From an uncultured delta proteobacterium (lineage in GTDB: Bacteria > Desulfobacterota > Desulfobacteria > Desulfobacterales > SG8-13): a stretch of DNA of 64,000 bases. The notes under the pieces are model-generated. The model did no database searches and was not told the DNA's origin. It saw nothing but the letters and a program-made list of their open reading frames with translations. Shown here in pieces: positions 7,450 through 16,765 of the stretch; position 1 is the stretch's first letter; each line of letters opens with the position of its first letter. The stretch lies in the NCBI GenBank assembly GCA_963825595.1, contig CAWGUE010000031.1:2270-66269 (forward strand), written 5' to 3'. The translations under genes were made by a program, and so were the position numbers.

Positions 7450-8299
7450 ATGAAAGTCATATTCAAATCGACACCCCTTCTCGTCGCAGCTTTTCTGATG
7501 TTAATGGGCATTGCCGACACGGCGACAGCCGGCCGGGGGATGGGATATGGGCACCGCGGCGGGTACGCCGGCGATCTCAGCGAAGACGACATCAAAGCTT
7601 TGAATAAAGAACGCCAGACCTTTTTCGAGGCCACCCGCGACCTGCGCCAGGACATGTACCGCAAAGAACTGGAACTGCAAACCGAACTGGCACAGAAGAC
7701 TCCGGATGCCAAAAAAGCCGCCGCTTTGCAGGAAGACATTTCCAAGCTTGAATCAGAGTTCGACCAGAAGCGTCTATCGCACATGATGAACATGCGAAAG
7801 ATCGCTCCTGAAGCCGGTATGATGGGACCGGGTATGATGGGTCCAGGCATGATGATGGGACCGGGAATGATGGGCGACGATGACGGAGACTGGAACTGCC
7901 CGTACGGCGGCGGCACCATGGGTCGGGGAGGCGGACACGGCATGATGGGACGCGGTTATGGAGTAGGGAAGCGGAATGATGATGGGACGCGGATCTGGTA
8001 TGGGTCCCGGTATGATGGGGCGCGGTTACGGCGCAGGCAGAGAATGGATGCGTGGTACCCCTGAAGCGGGAGAATCAGGCCAACGTTCCGGCGGGACGCA
8101 AACGCCCCTCAAAGAGGACGACGCCCGATCGGTTGTCGAGAAATATTTGACATCCACCCGCAACCCGAACTTGAAACTTGGAAAGATCACCGAAAGGGAA
8201 GATGTTTTTGAAGCCGAAATCGTCACCAAGGACGGCTCCCTGGTGGACAAGGTCATCGTCGACAAATCCAACGGGTGGATGCGTCCAGCCTACGAATAA
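7450..8299 (+). CDS. ZraP/Spy-like periplasmic protein with Met/Gly-rich repeats and a C-terminal PepSY-like domain (frameshift near 7960-7980)
   Basis: signal peptide, ZraP-like helical core, GPGMM repeats; continues in frame 7976-8299 (FEAEIVTKDGSLVDKVIVDK..GWM). Confidence 0.7.
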
Positions 8300-8325
8300 C
8301 GCAATGCAACTATTTGAGGACGAAC

Positions 8326-9808
8326 ATGGGCGACACGTTTAACGCCGGCATCCCCATCACCAGACGAAAATTCCTGAAAACCTCAGCGGGCGTCGTGCTC
8401 GGCACCTGCCTGCCGACACCCCTGCTGTCACTGGCTGAAGCGGCGCCATCGAAAAGGATCAAAGAATTTCACTTCTCCGCTTCTCCGGCCAGGGTCCATC
8501 TCGGCCAGGGGCCGGAATTTACCGCCTGGACATACAACGGTCAGGTTCCGGGACCGGAAATCCGGGTCACGGAAGGTGACATCGTCAGGGTATATCTGAA
8601 GAATTTTTTGCCTGAAGGGACAACCATTCACTGGCACGGCATTCCACTCAAAAATGCCATGGACGGTGTTCCCCACGTGACCCAGCCGCCGGTCATGCCG
8701 GGTGATAGTTTTGTCTACGAATTCGAAGCCCGAACCCCGGGCAGTTTCATGTATCATTCGCATGCCGGGTATCAACTCGATCAGGGGCTCTACGGGCCCC
8801 TGATCATCGAACCGACAAGGATGGATGAATCCTACGACCGGGAATACACCCTCGTTCTGGAAGATTGGGTCATGCGCGACGGGGGCGGTACGGCCCGCAC
8901 CGAGCGCCGCCCGCCCATGGGAATGATGCACGGTATGATGGGAAGAAGGCGCCGCTTCTCCAGTCCCGATGGTGGGACTCTTTGGGAACCGGTTTACGAC
9001 GGCTATGCCGTTAATGGTAAGGTGGCCAGGGCAATCGAACCGATATCGGTCGTCCGGGGCGATCGGGTCAAATTGCGGTTGATCAATGCGTCTTCAGCGA
9101 CGGTTTATTATTTGAGACTGTCGGGTCACACGCTGACAATCACCCATGCCGATGGCAATCCCATCCGTCCCATCGTTTCCGATGTGGTGCGTATCGGAAT
9201 GGGTGAGCGCTACGATGTCATGTTTACCGCCGACAATCCCGGCCGCTGGATGCTGGCCGCCGCCGACACGGGCCTGGGTGAAAACCGACTGCGGGTTCCG
9301 GTCGTCTACAAGGGCGTTAACTCGAAAGAAGAAGAGCCGCCGCTGTTTCACCGGGGCTTGTATCCCGCTGCGTATGCAGATTTCGAAGCCCGTCACCCGA
9401 GAAATGAATCCGAAGACACGTTCGACAAAGCCTACGATCAGATGCTCAGTGGCGGCATGCACGGATCTTCATGGACAATCAACGGTCAGGTCTATCCCGC
9501 TGCCGATAACCTTGTTGTCGCAAGCTGGCGAACGGGTGCGCCTGCGCTATGGAAACCACAGTATGATGGCCCATCCCATGCACCTGCATGGCCATTTTTT
9601 CAAGGTAGTGAACCCGGAACTTCCCCGCAGCCGTTGGGTACTGAAGGATACGATCATTGTCGATCGCATGCAGCGCATCGAGGTGGAGTTCCTGGCCGAC
9701 AACCCGGGCCGCTGGTTTCATCACTGCCACAACCTCTACCACATGGAGGCCGGGATGGCCAACGTGGTGGCGTACAGCGGTGGTACGGTTGATTCGGGCA
9801 ACGCCTGA
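8326..9808 (+). CDS. multicopper oxidase, Tat-exported (frameshift near 9520)
   Basis: TRRKFLK Tat motif, IHWHG, MYHSH; HPMHLHGH and HCHNLYHMEAGM in frame 9146-9808. Confidence 0.9.
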
Positions 9809-9961
9809 TCGAACGATATAACAGGGAGGCTTTCTGCTGTGAACATCGAAGGGTAACGATACCGTTTGTATTTGGCGGTAGCGGAAAGGCGTCGTTTTGA
9901 CTCCAGGGAGCAAATCGTCTATAATTCGACAAATTCATGTAAATCAAAGGATTTACTCAAT

Positions 9962-11482
9962 TTGCCGCCACCACCCAGAAACCCCAAAGCCTGCCGCTTC
10001 CCACTGTTCACTGTCGTTTTGACGGGGCTTTTGGTTGCCCAATTCGTGGCCATGGCCCAGGTATACGGGTCCAATCTGCGGCTTTTCCAGGACGTCTCCG
10101 CCCTGAACCGGGCGGGCTACCTGTCCATCCCCACACTTAAATCTCTTGAGGCATTGAAAACAATCGGTCCAGTAGTTTTCGGCGGACTTTTCTTCACCTT
10201 GAGCACCGGTGCGGGGCTCACCCTGGCCACCATCATCGGTATCTGGATCTGGCACAATCTGTCGCAGCGCAATCGGCCCATCATGATCCTGTTGCTTATC
10301 ATCTGGGTTGCCGGCCTTCTGATGGTCAACATCAACGGCTTTAACCTCTTCGGCTCGCTTTACTTTGCTTTGGTCCCAGCGGCCGTCTCTCTCGTTTATC
10401 TTCGCTGTCTGCCGCAGGCGTCCGACCGCAAAGGATTTTTGAACCGGCTGCTGCCCCTCTACCCGCTGGCATTCCTGGCCGTCATCTGGGGCATGCAAGC
10501 CGACAACCGCCTCTTCGTCAATATCAGGGATTTTCTTTTGCTTTCCAACCCGGTCGGCAAGTCAGTCAATGACTTTTACTACCGCTACACGCTTTATCCG
10601 GCCGAGGCGTTCAAATCGCTGGAACAGAAACTGCAGCGACCGATCAGGCTGACCGATATCCGGCCCGCCGCACTCGGTCGCAGGGTGGCGTCCCAATTGC
10701 GGTCCCGTGATTATCTGGTGGTGGGTAGCGATGAGCCGGTCGATTTGCAGATTAAACAGACGGGAGATCATCTGGACTGGCTGAATGACGGCACGCGAAT
10801 CCTGGCCGTCACGCCCGAATCGTTCCTTTCGAACCCGAACGCCGCACTTGCACAGGTCAGCCGCCAAACGGACCGATCGGCGTTCTTGCGCACATTTACC
10901 TTTTTCGGCATTCTGTTTGCATTTCCTGTCCTTCTCTACTGTGGCGTTTACGGTATTCTGCGGCTGCTGACGGGCCTTTTTCTGAAGCCTTCCGGTGCCA
11001 TCCTTCTCTCCAGCATACTGTGCTTTCTGATCGGAGTCGTGCTTCTGGTACCCGTATACCAGGGCGGTCGACGGCCGGTGAACACAGGAAACCTGGCGGC
11101 GGCATTAAACTCTGCCGACTGGCGTGATCGGGTAGCGGCCCTGAAACTGATAGAACAGCAGCAGCTGGAAATCAAGGCATACCCGTCCTATGAAAAATCG
11201 ATTTCCAGTCGGCATCTTCCCGAGAGATACTGGCTGGCCCAAGCACTGGGTTCGAGTAAAGAGGACCGCACGATTGACGAGCTATTGACGCTTCTGAACG
11301 ACCCTCAGCCCAATGTCGTGTGCCAGGCCCTCTATGCCCTTGGCAAGCGGGGGGGAGACAGACGTCCCGATATCGTCGAAACGATACTTGCAAAAATCGG
11401 CTCGACCGACAACTGGTATGTTCAGCGATACGCATACCTTGCCTTGAGGTCTCTCGGATGGCGTCAGCCCGCATCGAGCTGA
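9962..11482 (+). CDS. multi-TM membrane protein with C-terminal HEAT repeats
   Basis: long ORF with several TM segments and HEAT-like 'ERYWLAQALG..LLNDPQPNVVCQALYALG'; TTG start after AAAGGA is a best guess. Confidence 0.7.
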   Translation: MPPPPRNPKACRFPLFTVVLTGLLVAQFVAMAQVYGSNLRLFQDVSALNRAGYLSIPTLKSLEALKTIGPVVFGGLFFTLSTGAGLTLATIIGIWIWHNLSQRNRPIMILLLIIWVAGLLMVNINGFNLFGSLYFALVPAAVSLVYLRCLPQASDRKGFLNRLLPLYPLAFLAVIWGMQADNRLFVNIRDFLLLSNPVGKSVNDFYYRYTLYPAEAFKSLEQKLQRPIRLTDIRPAALGRRVASQLRSRDYLVVGSDEPVDLQIKQTGDHLDWLNDGTRILAVTPESFLSNPNAALAQVSRQTDRSAFLRTFTFFGILFAFPVLLYCGVYGILRLLTGLFLKPSGAILLSSILCFLIGVVLLVPVYQGGRRPVNTGNLAAALNSADWRDRVAALKLIEQQQLEIKAYPSYEKSISSRHLPERYWLAQALGSSKEDRTIDELLTLLNDPQPNVVCQALYALGKRGGDRRPDIVETILAKIGSTDNWYVQRYAYLALRSLGWRQPASS

Positions 11483-12099
11483 GAGTTTTACTCCTCGCGG
11501 TTCTGAGTATCTCTTTTATCGAGATCCTCGCTTCCGCTGCCGTGACCCGTTTCACGGCGAACGGGCTCGTGATCACCGGCAGCGCCCGGTTGCTGGAACT
11601 CTCGGCGATGGTCGCTATCCTTATCCATGCGAATCGCGGATTAACCGTCATCGGCCTAACGAAAGCCTCCGCCTTGCAAGGATTGTGGCGTGGCCTTTAC
11701 TGGTCGGCAGGTTTCGGGCTCCTTGCTTTGTTTGCCGGTATCGCTCTGTTTATCTCGGGAATAAACCCGCTCGACTTGATCGGCACGGCCCCGCAGACCG
11801 CACCCTCCCAAATTTTTCTGTTGTTCCTTGTCGGTGGTTTGATCGGACCGGTGGCCGAAGAATTTTTTTTCCGGGGCATCATCTACGGCTATTTCAGGCG
11901 ATGGGGAATACTGCCGGCCCTGCTTCTCAGCACCCTTCTATTCGTTCTCATGCATCCGGTCTTGACCTTTGCCCTCACCCAAACTATTGGCGGCATCGTC
12001 TTTGCGCTGGCTTATGAACGTGAAAGAAATCTGATGGTGCCGATGACAATTCACGTGCTGGGTAATGGTGCGATATTCGCCTTGACATTTTTAGTGTAG
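11458..12099 (+). CDS. CPBP (Abi/CAAX) family intramembrane glutamic endopeptidase
   Basis: PVAEEFFFRG, F..MH, H...N motifs. Confidence 0.85.
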   Translation: MASARIELRVLLLAVLSISFIEILASAAVTRFTANGLVITGSARLLELSAMVAILIHANRGLTVIGLTKASALQGLWRGLYWSAGFGLLALFAGIALFISGINPLDLIGTAPQTAPSQIFLLFLVGGLIGPVAEEFFFRGIIYGYFRRWGILPALLLSTLLFVLMHPVLTFALTQTIGGIVFALAYERERNLMVPMTIHVLGNGAIFALTFLV

Positions 12100-12304
12100 T
12101 TGATTGCAATTATGGTTTTCGGTCTTACAATAATCGATGACTGAACAGCAATAGCGTACGATTTAACGAACCCTCGGTGAGTTTTCCTAACTCGGAACTG
12201 CCGGGACGGAGAATGATCAACGACTTCAGCGCGCCTTGCGCGATAATATTGGAAAATAATAGCCAAAACTGAGCGTTTATGGCATTTTAAAAGGATTATT
12301 CAAA

Positions 12305-12718
12305 ATGAAGAAATTAGTCGGAAAGCTTATCACTGCCATCCTGATATTTTCGGTCGTCAGCGGATGTGCCACTTCGCCGTTTGCCGACGATGCGGTTCCG
12401 CGGATGAGCAAGGAAGAACTCAAACAGCGGATTGGTGCACCGGACATCATCATTCTGGACACCCGCACGGGCAGCGATTGGAACGACAGCGATCGAATTA
12501 TATTAGGGGCAGTGCGCGCCGAACCCAAGGAATTCAGCAAGTGGGCCGAAGCATACCCCAAGGATGCCACCATCGTATTGTACTGAGCGTGACATGACGA
12601 ATACACCAGTGCCAGGATGGCACGGCAACTCATCGGCAGAGGATACAATAAAGTGTACGCGCTTAAAGGCGGTTGGATCGAATGGCAAGGTTCCGGTTAC
12701 CCGATGGAGAAGAAATGA
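12305..12718 (+). CDS. rhodanese-like seleno-lipoprotein with U-x-U motif (Sec94, Sec96; 137 aa)
   Basis: lipobox VSGC. Reading through TGA 12584 and TGA 12590 gives IVLY-U-A-U-HDEYTSARMARQLIGRGYNKVYALKGGWIEW, a complete rhodanese fold. Hairpin GTGCCA-GGA-TGGCAC at 12609-12623. Confidence 0.85.
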
Positions 12719-13376
12719 TCGTAAAAATGGGTATGGGCGAGGGGCAGAGATCGTTCATTTCCAATAGATCTTTCTCGCTGCAGTACCCCTTGGAAGCATA
12801 ACCCTTCTCCAGGCCTTTTCGAGTGATCACCTGGATATGCGTGTGGTGGAACCAATTGCCGTTTTCGTGAAAATCACCGATCTCGGCAAAGGGTACACCG
12901 GCTGGGAACGTTTGACCGACTGCCGGCAGGTGGTCCCTGCACAGATGACCGTAGAAGCTGTAAAACGCCTCGAAATTGGGGCTCTCGTGCTTCAAGAGTA
13001 CGAAGCCGCCATAGTTACCTTCCCCGCTCTCGTAGCCGCTCCCTGAAACGGTGGCATCAAGCGGCGCATGCAGCGGTGTGCCCAAGCCCACGATGACATC
13101 CAGGCCCAGGTGGATGAATCGTTTTTCGGCCACCATCTGCGGGCAGTCCCCGAGCAGGGTGTCGCGTCGCTCGAAATAGGGCGAAACCCCCCATCGGTAT
13201 TCGGATCCCATCTTCTCCTCAAGGACCCGTTGGAATCCTTTCTGGTCCCGCACATTCTTCCCTTTGAGCAGTGGACTGTTGGTTGAGAGATCCGCGATAA
13301 AGGGATCTCCCTTCAGTCCCGGAAAGACAGGCCGGTGTTGGATCTTCTCACTGTAAAGCAAAAAAGGATAGTACAT
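12663..13376 (-). CDS. M23/peptidoglycan DD-metalloendopeptidase-like domain protein
   Basis: HLGLD, GTPLHAPLD, YGHL, ENGNWFHHTHIQ; no signal peptide. Confidence 0.75.
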   Translation of the reverse strand: MYYPFLLYSEKIQHRPVFPGLKGDPFIADLSTNSPLLKGKNVRDQKGFQRVLEEKMGSEYRWGVSPYFERRDTLLGDCPQMVAEKRFIHLGLDVIVGLGTPLHAPLDATVSGSGYESGEGNYGGFVLLKHESPNFEAFYSFYGHLCRDHLPAVGQTFPAGVPFAEIGDFHENGNWFHHTHIQVITRKGLEKGYASKGYCSEKDLLEMNDLCPSPIPIFTIISSPSGNRNLAIRSNRL

Positions 13377-13388
13377 GCGGCCTCCGGG

Positions 13389-15851
13389 TCAGGATAACGC
13401 AAAATCGGTGGTTTTCAGCAATCCGGCAACCGCAACGATCGGCTTGCCGTCATCACCTTCTTTGATATCATCGGGCCAGGTGAAATCCGGTGATAGGCCC
13501 CTGAAGTAGGAGAGCTCGTAGGGAAGCAGTTTTATCGACAGATTCTCACCTTCACCGATAATGGTGGATGACAAACCGAAATCAACCTCACCCAGGACCG
13601 TGCGGATAATGTAGCGCGGCACCTCCCTGCCGCTGCCTTCCCGGCGGACCCGTGTGGCGATGTCCACCACATCGTAAAGCGCCACCGGGTTGCGCTTATT
13701 CCAATGGTCTTGCACGGGAAGTCCGGCCACGTACAGGTGGTGAAACTCGATGCCGGCCTTCCGGCAGCTGTAGGCGAGGTGGTGAATGGCCTCCGGCGTG
13801 TCGTTGATTCTGCCCAGCAGGGGCGTGTTGTTATAAACGGTGATGCCCTTGTTGTTCAGCAGGCGCGTCAACCGGGTGTGCGCCGGCCGAAACTCGTCCG
13901 CAACCAGAAATTGGGTTTCAATTTCCAGCCGTTGCGGATTGACGATGGTCAGTTTGTTCAGGCTGGCCAGCTTGTCGATCACCACCGGCGAGTAGCGATC
14001 CGGTTCGTAGTTGAATTTCAGGCTGCGCAACCGGACGGCATTGACATGCGGGATGTCTTCCAGGGCCCTGATGATTTTACTGATTTGGAACAGAGATTCG
14101 GTGGCGTCTATCTCGGAAACGATCACCACGTCGGTAATGCGTTCGTCACCCTGGATGTAATTTAGATCCGCTTCGGTGCCATCGGCATCGATCTCGACCC
14201 GGGTTTCGTGGACGCGTGACATCGTCGAAGATCCGGTATCGACAAGCGATGGCGCAATTTTTTCATTTTTCAGTACCATTGGCAGAATCGCATCGGTACT
14301 TTCTGTCTTCATTGTCACGCCGTCGCCAAGTCTAGACGGCCGCGCTCCCAGAAAGAGCGATTGATCCCCGATCTGCGCCATGTACTGAATGTCGATGGTC
14401 CCCTCCTCGTTGACCCGGATATTTTCCAACTTGTTGGCAACAGGTGCAAATTGCTTGAAATAGTCCGGTGTGTAAGGACTTCGGATCCACATGAAGTTGT
14501 CGTTTCCCGCCACCGGCTCCACGGCCCAGCCGCTGGTGTGCCAGTCCATCTTGCCGATGGGGGTGGCCGTGCAGATCCTCGGAATAACGCGGTCAGACAG
14601 GTGCGCCCGCAGGTATTTTCCTGCGGCCAGACCTTTTGATATCGGCGACCAGTAGACGCTGTTTCCATGGATGGGACTGCAGGGGATGTAAATATAATGG
14701 AGTTCGGCCCCGGCGCCACGCAGCAGACTGAACAGCCGGACCAGTTCAGGGCCTTCATCGTTGCAGTTATTTAAAAACGGTGTCTGAACGTATACTGCAA
14801 TGCCGCTTTTCACCAGATCGGTGATAATCATCAGGCTCTGGGGGGAAATCTCGTCGGGATGGATGAAGTGGGTGGCCACCTCCATGCGTTTGCCGCGTTC
14901 CTGAAGCGCGAGGTTTTTGCGCTTCAGATAATTCAACAGTTTGGCATCCTCGGACAGGAACATATGCGGGTAGTAGGCAATGGAACGGGTGGCCAGGCGC
15001 AGGGTCTGGACATGTTCGATCTCCATGAGGCCGTCGATGGCGCTGGCCATGTTTGCCCGGTTCATGAAGGGATCGCCCCCGGTGATCACGATCTCCTTGA
15101 TGGAAGGCGAATTTTTAACATGCGCCACCGCCTTTTTGACTTCCGCAGGGGTGGGGTTGGTTTCGTTGCGAGATTCCTTGTGCTTGCGGAAGCAGAACCG
15201 ACAGTACACCGGGCAGCTCATGTTCAGCAGAAAGATGACACGGTTCTGGTACATCTGCTCCAGCAGCCCCTGGTGGAACTGGCCGATCCAGGTGTTGGTG
15301 TGTCCGGCGACATCCAGTTCCTGGGTGAACGGTAAATATTGATAGGTGACATCTCGAGATACGCGCATCTGGCGGATGGTATGCATGGAGAGCCTCACCG
15401 GATAGGTGTCGATCACCTTTTGCATATCCCCCCGCTTCGCTTCCGCAAATGAGATGTTGGCGAACTTTTCCAGCTGATCGGTCGTCTTGATGGAAATGAA
15501 TGCATTGCCGGGAAGAACAATCTCCAGAATCGCCATCAGCATCAGGTGGGGCAGTTCAATACCGTTAATACAGATCTTTTGGGTGCCGTTTGCTTTTCCC
15601 AGCAGCATGAGCAGTTCAGAGAAAAAACCCTTTGGATTGTCGCTATGCCCGCAAGCGTCGAGCAGTCTTGAAAGTTTTGTTCGCCCGTCACCGGTCTGTA
15701 TAATGTCAAAAAACGTTTTGCCGACAAGTGACATCACGCCCATATGGTCGAGGAAACCGGTGAGGGCGGCAACCAAATGTGCGAGGGGCACCTGGTTCTC
15801 TTCGCCTGAATTTTCGTAAACAATCTTTAAAAATGGTTCGTCTCGCGACAT
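13389..15851 (-). CDS. KamA (lysine 2,3-aminomutase)-like radical SAM protein with a duplicated degenerate second domain
   Basis: CPVYCRFCFRK, ITGGDP, THFIHPDE, QTPFL..CND, PIGK; second half repeats NTPLL..IND/LYVA/VPRY without the CxxxCxxC. Confidence 0.85.
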   Translation of the reverse strand: MSRDEPFLKIVYENSGEENQVPLAHLVAALTGFLDHMGVMSLVGKTFFDIIQTGDGRTKLSRLLDACGHSDNPKGFFSELLMLLGKANGTQKICINGIELPHLMLMAILEIVLPGNAFISIKTTDQLEKFANISFAEAKRGDMQKVIDTYPVRLSMHTIRQMRVSRDVTYQYLPFTQELDVAGHTNTWIGQFHQGLLEQMYQNRVIFLLNMSCPVYCRFCFRKHKESRNETNPTPAEVKKAVAHVKNSPSIKEIVITGGDPFMNRANMASAIDGLMEIEHVQTLRLATRSIAYYPHMFLSEDAKLLNYLKRKNLALQERGKRMEVATHFIHPDEISPQSLMIITDLVKSGIAVYVQTPFLNNCNDEGPELVRLFSLLRGAGAELHYIYIPCSPIHGNSVYWSPISKGLAAGKYLRAHLSDRVIPRICTATPIGKMDWHTSGWAVEPVAGNDNFMWIRSPYTPDYFKQFAPVANKLENIRVNEEGTIDIQYMAQIGDQSLFLGARPSRLGDGVTMKTESTDAILPMVLKNEKIAPSLVDTGSSTMSRVHETRVEIDADGTEADLNYIQGDERITDVVIVSEIDATESLFQISKIIRALEDIPHVNAVRLRSLKFNYEPDRYSPVVIDKLASLNKLTIVNPQRLEIETQFLVADEFRPAHTRLTRLLNNKGITVYNNTPLLGRINDTPEAIHHLAYSCRKAGIEFHHLYVAGLPVQDHWNKRNPVALYDVVDIATRVRREGSGREVPRYIIRTVLGEVDFGLSSTIIGEGENLSIKLLPYELSYFRGLSPDFTWPDDIKEGDDGKPIVAVAGLLKTTDFALS

Positions 15852-15970: not shown

Positions 15971-16765
15971 ATGTCAAAAGGAAAATACTATTTCTCAAAA
16001 TCGCTGGAAAAAGGGCTGAAGATTTTAGCCCTTTTCAACCGAGAAACCCCTGTGACGACCCAGAGTGAAATCGCCAGGAGGCTGGGTCTCAACATGACCT
16101 CAACCTATCGTTACATCAACACACTGGTGGAATTGGGTTACCTGGAAAAAGACGCAAAAACAAAAGAAATCCGACCTTCCGCTCTTTGCCTTCTGTTCTG
16201 CGCCAATTTGATGCGAGCCACCGATCATCTGAAGATGATCAAGGAGATCGTGGACCGGATCCACAGTAAAAATAATATCAGCATCGATGTGGCCTTTGTG
16301 GTCGATGACACGATAGTGCATATCTATCATCGGGAGGCGGAGGAGACCCTCACCTACAGCCTGCCGGATTTCTCGAGAAATTGCCTGCACAACACGGCAT
16401 TGGGTAAAGCGTATCTTTCCAGTCTTCCGAACGGACTTATCGCTGACAAAATCGAGACGATGCCCCTTACCGCCAGGACTTCAAAGACCATCGTCGACAA
16501 AGATGCGCTCTTGGCGGAGATACAAGTAACCAAGGCGCGTGAGTTCTCAATGTCCGAGGAAGAGTATCTCCCCGGCTTGCTGGCCATCGGCGCACCCTTG
16601 ATTGATCCCATTAGCGGAAAGGGCGTCGGTGCGGTATCATTTGATTTTTCGGTGCTGCAGCAGAGTGCAAAGGAAATCGTGGTGAGGTACAGCGAAATGA
16701 TCAGGGAAACGGCCAGGTCACTGTCCGAGATCTTGATAGCGGGAAATGGCCGCAGGTCGTCATAA
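15971..16765 (+). CDS. IclR family transcriptional regulator
   Basis: SLEKGLKIL HTH, TALGKAYL, EEYLPGLLAIGAP. Confidence 0.9.
   Translation: MSKGKYYFSKSLEKGLKILALFNRETPVTTQSEIARRLGLNMTSTYRYINTLVELGYLEKDAKTKEIRPSALCLLFCANLMRATDHLKMIKEIVDRIHSKNNISIDVAFVVDDTIVHIYHREAEETLTYSLPDFSRNCLHNTALGKAYLSSLPNGLIADKIETMPLTARTSKTIVDKDALLAEIQVTKAREFSMSEEEYLPGLLAIGAPLIDPISGKGVGAVSFDFSVLQQSAKEIVVRYSEMIRETARSLSEILIAGNGRRSS

Follow-up and report, generated by a model that had tools for sequence, protein, structure and literature searches.

A rhodanese-family lipoprotein gene with two in-frame UGA codons and one candidate SECIS hairpin in an uncultured desulfobacterial genome

Can one small RNA hairpin direct selenocysteine (Sec) into a protein twice, at UGA codons that lie only 6 nt apart? 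In bacteria, Sec insertion is thought to need a hairpin, the bacterial Sec insertion sequence (bSECIS), at a defined distance from the UGA. The question is raised by a gene at positions 12305-12718 of a 64,000-nucleotide stretch of contig CAWGUE010000031.1, from an uncultured delta proteobacterium of the Desulfobacterales; the whole stretch is called the window here. Judged from the sequence and its homologues, this is very probably a genuine, intact single gene for a periplasm-facing rhodanese lipoprotein in the two-Sec form L-Y-U-A-U, where U stands for Sec, with one hairpin serving both UGAs. A wider reading, with a probability of about 0.45, is that one minimal SECIS licenses both UGAs, and that residue 94, the first of the two, has flipped between Cys and Sec by single-base changes at least six times without a change in the RNA. 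The SelB-SECIS system of this phylum would then tolerate a range of at least 6 nt and reload within two translocations. The Sec-x-Sec protein would serve as a periplasmic chalcogen/metal redox module, linked to copper/metal stress in one genus and fused to octahaem cytochromes in others.

Positions 12581-12601 read TAC TGA GCG TGA CAT GAC GAA with both TGAs in frame, just as in the preliminary description of this locus, which had been made from the letters of the window. Under genetic code table 11 the open reading frame (ORF) ends at 12586 after 93 amino acids, and translation of TGA as U gives 137 residues. Two further claims of that description are borne out by the translation. Read-through does restore a rhodanese domain, since the Pfam match spans both TGAs (Table 1), and the lipobox VSGC is found after M-K-K and a hydrophobic run, as a match to the pattern [LVI][ASTVI][GAS]C. 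Cys21 is predicted to carry the lipid and to begin the mature protein. Of 25 Sec homologues, 15 have a lipobox-like pattern and the remaining 10 have other hydrophobic N-termini. The protein scores 170.8 bits (cut-off 115; E 9.1e-51) on the model NF041203, 'rhodanese_LYCAU, rhodanese-related (seleno)protein', with residues 14-137 aligned to model positions 3-126 of 126.

The family profile best matches the solved rhodanese 6mxv_A (E 1.5e-30). Residue 94 aligns with the Cys of the 6mxv stretch 'YCG--GGFRS', and the fit needs a 2-residue insertion in the active-site loop; residue 96 falls inside this insertion. The alignment thus puts U94 at the canonical catalytic position and makes U96 the family-specific Sec. 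Rhodaneses that act as thiosulfate sulfurtransferases typically carry a six-residue active-site loop, and the loop of the 12305-12718 family departs from this length by its insertion. The rhodanese fold is present, but a standard sulfurtransferase role is at best presumptive. Sulfur/selenium transferase activity, as the preliminary description proposed, may likewise be supposed.

Homologues were collected in two surveys. The first covered 61 genomes (the window's own and others of its genus, family and order), 56 of which had some match. The loci read there comprised nine Sec-x-Sec (UxU) genes, the window's gene included, 17 of Cys-x-Sec type (CxU; CAU, CTU and CSU) and three non-Sec C-S-T paralogues. 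One of nine rows flagged for two TGAs at E below 1e-20, G001:C23, proved to be CAU plus another TGA and was rejected as UxU. For the second survey, 400 more genomes were sampled evenly across the phylum, and 91 had a match at E<=1e-15. By a manual count of rows, the 124 matches carried one TGA in 102 cases, two in 14 and none in eight. All 14 two-TGA genes are UxU (YUAU, YUTU, YUSU or YUDU), so that this form makes up about one tenth of the copies in the phylum sample. Across the approximately 460 genomes, 72 Sec-bearing homologues were usable, 49 CxU and 23 UxU.

At column 94, 49 of the 72 Sec forms have Cys and 23 have TGA, and all 11 non-Sec forms have Cys. Column 96 holds TGA in 72/72 Sec forms, and the non-Sec homologues have Cys (four), Thr (four), Ser (two) or Ala (one). 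The preliminary description cited a Y-C-x-C form in related rhodaneses, called for an alignment of Cys/Sec variants and named the lack of Cys at these columns as a result that would tell against it. The alignment contains CxC (4), CxU (49) and UxU (23) forms. The true CxC forms are YCSC (twice), YCDC and YCTC (L107, L108, L109 and L118), and C-x-S and C-x-A forms are also present among the TGA-free homologues of the phylum sample. Since Cys occurs at both columns in homologues, both UGAs show the Cys/Sec pairing expected of selenoproteins. The TGA-x-TGA arrangement recurs in 22 further genes from other genomes, and this recurrence, with the Cys or TGA at both columns, speaks against a chance arrangement. 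Three same-genus orthologues have both TGAs and equal length, at 89, 82 and 68% protein identity, and TGA-GCG-TGA is identical in three other species of the genus. In public protein data, the top 13 matches (68-94% identity) are 93-residue stubs. Each spans 67% of the query, and those with a name bear that of 'hypothetical protein'.

The frame beyond the TGAs evolves as a coding sequence. Codons 97-137 differ from those of three same-genus UxU orthologues, the last of them in genome G004, by 4, 7 and 7 synonymous and 4, 3 and 7 nonsynonymous changes of 41. The same comparison gives 14, 18 and 18 synonymous and 9, 19 and 34 nonsynonymous changes of 93 upstream codons, so that the nonsynonymous/synonymous ratio after the TGAs is no worse than before them. 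The C-terminal G-G-W-x-E-W...Y-P-x-E-K-K is kept across the family, also in genes without a convergent neighbour. The 89%-identical orthologue in genome G007 has no convergent neighbour within 580 nt. The preliminary description had allowed that the 3' frame might be constrained only by the minus-strand ORF that overlaps it. This doubt falls away, as the frame is conserved without that ORF and changes by coding-type substitution. The overlapping tail of the minus-strand M23 ORF lies outside its own Pfam M23 match (residues 88-183 of 237) and may be an unconstrained extension.

Contigs from two further runs cover the site. A metatranscriptome-labelled contig of 486 nt (12289-12774) differs from the window at 29 positions without gaps, and none of the 28 listed differences falls in the TGAs or the stem. 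One of them turns His97 into Pro, the residue found in most homologues. Another metatranscriptome-labelled contig of 166 nt (12554-12719) is 99% identical with two differences, and it diverges from the window right after the stop codon (after 12719). The DNA run X2 covers 12823-13100 only, outside the gene. That the TGAs are assembly or sequencing errors, or that TGA is a sense codon in this organism, might be suggested by the draft state of the genome (36 contigs) and by a frameshift in a neighbouring gene. We regard this explanation as practically negligible, because the identical TGA-GCG-TGA of three other species, the two contigs with no difference listed at the site and the presence of a selA/selB/selD set all stand against it. 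An alternative genetic code was rejected on a further ground, as TGA also terminates the window gene and many homologues.

What could direct Sec insertion at these codons? The preliminary description reported a single perfect hairpin 22 and 16 nt after the two UGAs. The hairpin is confirmed, and it stands in the same place in all 72 Sec forms. The stem begins 22 nt past the first TGA and 16 nt past the second, and the loop begins 28 and 22 nt past them. The calculated energy is -7.2 kcal/mol for the 15-nt core and -9.5 kcal/mol with a two-pair extension around a bulged A. The consensus bSECIS given in a 2026 review (PMC13188914) has a loop of 3-9 nt with G in the two leading positions, a stem of at least 4 bp, a UGA-loop distance of 16-37 nt and an energy of -7.5 kcal/mol or lower. 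The GGA (or A-GGA-U) loop, the 6-bp stem and the distances of 28 and 22 nt fit this model, and the energy comes within its limit only with the extension.

The hairpin was compared in 83 genes, over 66 nt from the Tyr codon onward. A motif filter left out L057, L006, L064b, L083, L110 (first copy), L111, L113, L116 and L117; two of these, L083 and L113, are CxU genes at contig ends. The duplicate L085b was dropped as well. Five core pairs are present at the same columns in 72/72 Sec forms (23 UxU and 49 CxU) versus 1/11 non-Sec forms, and the lone non-Sec homologue that has them is a CxC form. As an observation on the side, the CxC gene L109 (G139:C38; YCDC) retains a full hairpin, GCGCC-AAUGU-GGCGC, and could mark a recent Sec-to-Cys replacement.

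The hairpin arms fall in Ser-Ala ... Ala-x codons, so conservation of the protein could mimic a structure. The choice among synonymous codons argues against this. The 5'-arm codon is GCC in 63 of the 72 Sec forms and GTC (Val) in nine, with no other Ala codon, and the 3'-arm Ala codon is GCA in 58 and GCG in 13 (71/72). The third base of the Ser codon pairs with the third base of the 3'-arm Ala codon as U-A in 58, C-G in eight and U-G in six, and the mismatch C-A does not occur. The loop-closing codon ends in G in 72/72, over seven codons and six amino acids. Non-Sec homologues, by comparison, use GCT or GCC freely. Compensation that changes the amino acids is also seen, for example where Arg-Met is replaced by Gly-Thr through AGG/AUG to GGG/ACG. 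Among the first 26 sequences, 94% of cells pair and double changes occur in three of six pairs, a result that neither shuffles nor slid registers attain. In the loop, G is invariable at the second position and the next base is G or U. UxU and CxU genes do not differ in their stems or loop types. No second conserved element was seen beside the hairpin in the aligned homologues, and Rfam at permissive thresholds returned only two chance snoRNA matches in 12200-12800.

The strongest indication that one hairpin serves both codons comes from the history of residue 94. On a quick maximum-likelihood tree of 82 domains (104 columns, with the two motif columns masked; the careful search was left unfinished), the UxU label needs 13 changes, at least six of which are forced by branches with an SH-aLRT of 95 or more. 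Several UxU genes have CxU genes as their nearest relatives: L073 and L094 group with L071, L095 lies inside a CxU clade, and L096-L100 group with L106. Such close CxU/UxU pairs differ without a change in the RNA. Since TGY becomes TGA by a single base and the RNA stays as it was, the simplest reading is that the existing hairpin already serves a UGA at either position. This switching at residue 94 is the main, if indirect, support for one SECIS acting on two codons, as far as comparison of sequences can carry it.

Is the first UGA decoded as Sec at all? It might be that only UGA-96 is, and that at UGA-94 most ribosomes stop or a near-cognate tRNA (Cys or Trp) is used, UxU genes being leaky or decaying CxU genes. 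Both the signature of the family and its published description name a single Sec (CxU), the hairpin lies at the distance typical of CxU genes with UGA-94 6 nt further off, the step from TGC or TGT to TGA is a single-base change, and gene callers end these genes at 93 residues. Against this, the 23 UxU genes come from many genera with the downstream frame intact and conserved. UxU sits on at least six supported branches and is kept in four species of the genus at 68-89% protein identity, and the 28-nt spacing is within the 16-37 nt of the consensus model. Gene fusions add a further argument. Seven genes fuse an LY(U/C)AU rhodanese to a cytochrome of approximately 400 residues with eight CxxCH motifs: L050, L096, L097, L098, L100 and L105 are UxU, and L106 is CxU. 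Termination at UGA-94 would cost the six UxU fusions their whole octahaem cytochrome. On this evidence, we consider a single Sec at UGA-96 highly unlikely.

Separate recoding signals could also be imagined, with the hairpin acting for UGA-96 and another element acting for UGA-94, such as a lower stem long enough to take in the UGAs, or a signal located upstream or in the protein. In four same-genus UxU genes, the stem indeed gains two C-G pairs around the bulged A (12606-12625), and this extension is unseen in the CxU genes of the genus. It is missing, however, from most other UxU genes. The stems and loop types shared between UxU and CxU genes, the unchanged RNA of the close pairs and the Rfam search of 12200-12800, which finds nothing else, also speak against separate signals. 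They are quite improbable, and we return to the single hairpin.

Sec insertion requires machinery that the organism should encode. The window genome, G000 (36 contigs, 95% complete), has selB (375.7 bits; cut-off 242), selA (607.9 bits; cut-off 268) and selD (375.7 bits), the last with an in-frame TGA of its own. A tRNA-Sec gene of 94 nt (74.6-76.5 bits) is present in 11 of 15 other genomes of the genus. In G000, the best Rfam candidate for tRNA-Sec (46.2 bits) is a tRNA-Ser by ARAGORN and was rejected. The 1.4 kb beside the tRNA-Sec of G007 matches the G000 contig C36 up to its last base (42697), approximately 90 nt short of the expected tRNA. Judging from this alignment, selC of G000 was probably lost in an assembly gap past the end of C36.

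In the mechanism that we propose, the hairpin, which is G+C-rich with a G-G loop, would act as a bacterial SECIS. With UGA-94 in the A site and the loop 28 nt ahead, SelB and Sec-tRNA on the hairpin would deliver the first Sec. After two translocations UGA-96 would be in place, with the loop 22 nt ahead, and a second SelB complex would deliver the other. Translation would end at the third UGA (12716), which lacks a hairpin. The two adjacent selenols may then alternate between a selenolate pair and a diselenide or Se-S(n)-Se bridge, and sulfane sulfur, other chalcogens or soft metals could be bound, handed on or reduced by the pair in the periplasm. The sequences themselves show the intact gene, its family, the Cys/Sec pairing at both columns, the conserved and covarying hairpin, selA, selB and selD, and the synteny. 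We infer the decoding of both UGAs from one hairpin, the lipidation and the selenol chemistry from these comparisons taken together. As for function, the protein would provide a periplasmic two-chalcogen redox or carrier site, tied to metal stress in the genus and to multihaem electron transfer elsewhere.

The genes around the rhodanese gene give one functional lead (Table 1).

Table 1. Features of the rhodanese locus and of its neighbours in the window
Feature	Position	Strand	Evidence and remarks
Selenoprotein precursor gene, 137 codons (rhodanese_LYCAU family)	12305-12718	+	Stop TGA 12716-12718 included; NF041203 score and orthologues
Predicted signal peptide and lipobox V-S-G-C (residues 18-21, 12356-12367)	12305-12367	+	Read from the translation
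Rhodanese domain, residues 36-128	12410-12688	+	Pfam PF00581, E 5.3e-14; spans both TGAs
UGA-94, read as Sec; canonical rhodanese catalytic-Cys position	12584-12586	+	Profile alignment to 6mxv
UGA-96, signature Sec of the family (U in L-Y-C-A-U)	12590-12592	+	TGA in all 72 Sec forms
bSECIS-type hairpin GUGCCA-GGA-UGGCAC (candidate)	12609-12623	+	Perfect inverted repeat; extends to 12606-12625 with bulged A
Third TGA, true stop	12716-12718	+	Homologues terminate at the same column with TGA or another stop
Metal_resist (ZraP/Spy-like), first gene of the unit	7450-8064	+	PF13801, E 1.1e-12; position occupied in 4/5 genus relatives
Multicopper oxidase, split over two frames	8275-9808	+	Frameshift near 9488-9519; four relatives have it intact (485-524 aa)
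Membrane protein with C-terminal HEAT repeats	9866-11482	+	PF13646, E 1.2e-9; kept upstream in relatives
CPBP/Rce1-like intramembrane protease ORF	11320-12099	+	PF02517, E 2e-18; true start probably later; directly 5' of the rhodanese gene
Convergent M23-peptidase ORF	12663-13376	-	Overlaps the 3' end of the rhodanese gene by its last 56 nt; does not belong to the system

The preliminary description placed the rhodanese at the end of a ZraP-multicopper oxidase-HEAT-CPBP unit. This is what the window holds, and among five genus relatives whose upstream 8 kb were read, the full five-gene order is found in four; in G007, the fifth, genes for an outer-membrane efflux protein and for a multicopper oxidase stand upstream instead. 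The HEAT, CPBP and rhodanese genes are adjacent in G007 (UxU) and in seven genomes of the genus that have CxU. Beyond the genus, the surroundings change from genome to genome and include an amino-acid permease, another rhodanese next to a pyridine-nucleotide disulfide oxidoreductase, MsrA/B, FxsA, an FGE-sulfatase and a metallo-beta-lactamase fold. The split of the oxidase is seen against the G001 orthologue, whose residues 1-430 align up to about 9519 and whose residues 420-515 align in another frame from about 9488. It may be either a real pseudogene or an assembly error. Two observations lie beside the unit. In four genus relatives (loci L122, L123, L124 and L125), a fragment of an ORF like GrdB (glycine/sarcosine/betaine reductase selenoprotein B) is found upstream of the Metal_resist gene (Pfam E about 1e-7), perhaps a further selenoprotein gene that an in-frame TGA interrupts. 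In the window, 13389-15851 on the minus strand encodes an 820-residue radical-SAM protein ('CPVYCRFC', C-x3-C-x2-C) that adjoins an IclR-type regulator (15971-16765).

The octahaem fusions give the second lead. The fused cytochrome is of the hydroxylamine/hydrazine-oxidoreductase type, with a weak match to hydrazine dehydrogenase and multi-haem models, and four of the six UxU fusions and the CxU fusion belong to one genus. By domain composition, the fusions are a possible lead to periplasmic sulfur or nitrogen redox chemistry.

The two leads bear on what the selenols do. Instead of carrying sulfur, they might form mainly a soft-metal site (for Cu(I), or for Hg, Ag or Cd) or a metal-stress redox buffer within a periplasmic copper/metal-stress unit. 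The order from Metal_resist to rhodanese in the window and in four of five genus relatives suggests this, as does a weak likeness to the model of the chromate-resistance rhodanese ChrE (37.5 bits versus a cut-off of 120). Many recently found bacterial selenoproteins are also tied to metal or metalloid resistance according to the 2026 review (PMC13188914). The gene neighbours, on the other hand, vary outside the genus, the seven octahaem fusions point to electron transfer over metal buffering, and the multicopper oxidase of the window is frameshifted. We hold a role confined mainly to soft metals to be unlikely, though well worth attention.

Several points weigh against the reading of a two-Sec protein served by one hairpin. 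Some of them concern the RNA. The UGA-to-SECIS distance is tight in E. coli, so it cannot be taken for granted that one hairpin works at two distances. The hairpin is small, at -7.2 kcal/mol alone. Its 111-nt context, folded alone, does not exceed shuffled sequences in stability (z -0.86; 36 of 200 are equally stable), and the minimum free energy (MFE) fold of this context lacks the 12609-12623 hairpin. As the context fold is not unusual, support for the hairpin is comparative and not thermodynamic. Few independent double changes stand behind the covariation (three pairs, by one sequence each, in the first set), and the tree is a quick one on 104 columns only. The contigs from RNA libraries show neither strand nor transcription, and one difference per contig is unlisted. 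No tRNA-Sec gene was found in the G000 assembly by Rfam, ARAGORN or a loose anticodon/T-loop pattern. Other points concern the function. The metal-stress synteny is restricted to the genus, and within the window genome the multicopper oxidase of the unit is itself frameshifted. The UxU orthologues of G002 and G004 lie between a Fer4/FAD oxidoreductase and a 2-oxoacid:ferredoxin oxidoreductase beta subunit. A close stand-alone relative of the fused octahaem cytochrome was not found in G000, where the search gave only weak multihaem matches of 41.6 and 34 bits.

As a discovery the gene adds little, since a curated family model exists and UxU was noted in 2007. Its value is that of a natural test bed for the distance requirement of Sec insertion. 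In the window gene and its 22 relatives, two UGAs, at 22 and 28 nt, apparently share one small hairpin, and the close CxU/UxU pairs are a ready series for studying positional tolerance and SelB reloading. A search of titles and abstracts returned no experiment in which a single bacterial SECIS was tried with two UGAs. If a rhodanese carries Sec-x-Sec in its catalytic loop, anaerobes would have in their periplasm a diselenide or selenenyl-persulfide site of a kind rare in nature. The link to ZraP-like, multicopper oxidase, HEAT and CPBP genes and the octahaem fusions are two concrete functional leads. The 93-residue stubs produced by gene callers indicate that the family is under-annotated in metagenomes.

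How does the window protein compare with known systems? The general fold is that of 6mxv, GlpE (1gmx) and 1qxn, and the first Sec of the window protein stands at their catalytic-Cys position. The structure 1qxn is that of Wolinella Sud, a periplasmic polysulfide-sulfur transferase. Sud and PspE are exported rhodaneses, as the window protein is predicted to be. Unlike 6mxv, GlpE and 1qxn, the window protein has a loop two residues longer, a second chalcogen residue at +2, Sec for Cys and a predicted lipid anchor.

Its own family, NF041203, is listed in the 2026 review (PMC13188914) as 'form 3, CxU, 1 Sec'. The window protein shares with it the enlarged active-site loop, the Sec at U96 and the downstream hairpin common to the 49 CxU members. 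It differs from the single-Sec family as listed there in that the Cys of L-Y-C-A-U is itself Sec, so that there are two. This signature position is Sec (TGA 12584-12586) in the window as in 23 of the 72 Sec homologues, and the full model still scores above its cut-off. The UxU form has a precedent in the 'rhodanese-related sulfurtransferase' selenoprotein of the Olavius algarvensis symbiont metagenome (Zhang & Gladyshev 2007, PMC1976440). Family name and motif match the window gene, and the identity of the columns is taken from the text of that paper. That form belongs to another organism, and the one sentence devoted to it carries no analysis of SECIS, recurrence, lipoprotein signal or context. 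A literature query for two-selenocysteine rhodanese selenoproteins found none, and the preprint of Haft & Gwadz contains nothing on rhodaneses; Haft & Tolstoy 2025 and the NF041203 record may mention UxU.

A second relative with two Sec is TsoB, a rhodanese/DsbD fusion-like selenoprotein (NF045694; UxxxxU, 2 Sec; Haft & Tolstoy 2025, as listed in PMC13188914). By that listing, it shares with the window protein a bacterial rhodanese domain with two close Sec in the active-site loop. Unlike TsoB, the window protein scores only 31.5 bits on NF045694 (cut-off 805), has no DsbD part, consists of a single domain of 137 residues and has UxU spacing. G000 also encodes a TsoB-like rhodanese (C30:202653-202985, L006, with the motif from about L006:1708), which reads Y-U-A-G-L-T-U with TGAs 15 nt apart and scores 207.9 bits on NF045694 with its rhodanese part alone. 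By eye, a hairpin GCGGCC-CGUGU-GGCCGU lies 15 nt after its second TGA, with the loop 21 and 36 nt from the TGAs; this hairpin is absent from the RNAfold MFE structure of the 87-nt stretch.

In its setting, the window protein resembles ExtH, a rhodanese-family lipoprotein of the Geobacter extHIJKL cluster, which lies beside the multihaem selenoprotein MccSep (PMC6148476, PMC13510729). ExtH too is a rhodanese lipoprotein of an anaerobe; it is tied to multihaem cytochromes and linked in these papers to sulfur, selenite or tellurite reduction, and seven homologues of the window protein are fused to an octahaem cytochrome. The likeness is one of description and not of sequence comparison, and the accounts of ExtH in PMC6148476 and PMC13510729 do not present it as a selenoprotein. 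G000 also differs from the multihaem setting of ExtH, as it has no close relative of the fused octahaem cytochrome. The preliminary description was right wherever sequence data could check it. Measured against all these systems, the family and its UxU form are already described, and the window gene adds a member. What is added here, from sequence comparison, is the comparative case for the hairpin, the repeated exchange of Cys and Sec at residue 94, an estimate of how common UxU is, the fusions to octahaem cytochromes and the metal-stress synteny.

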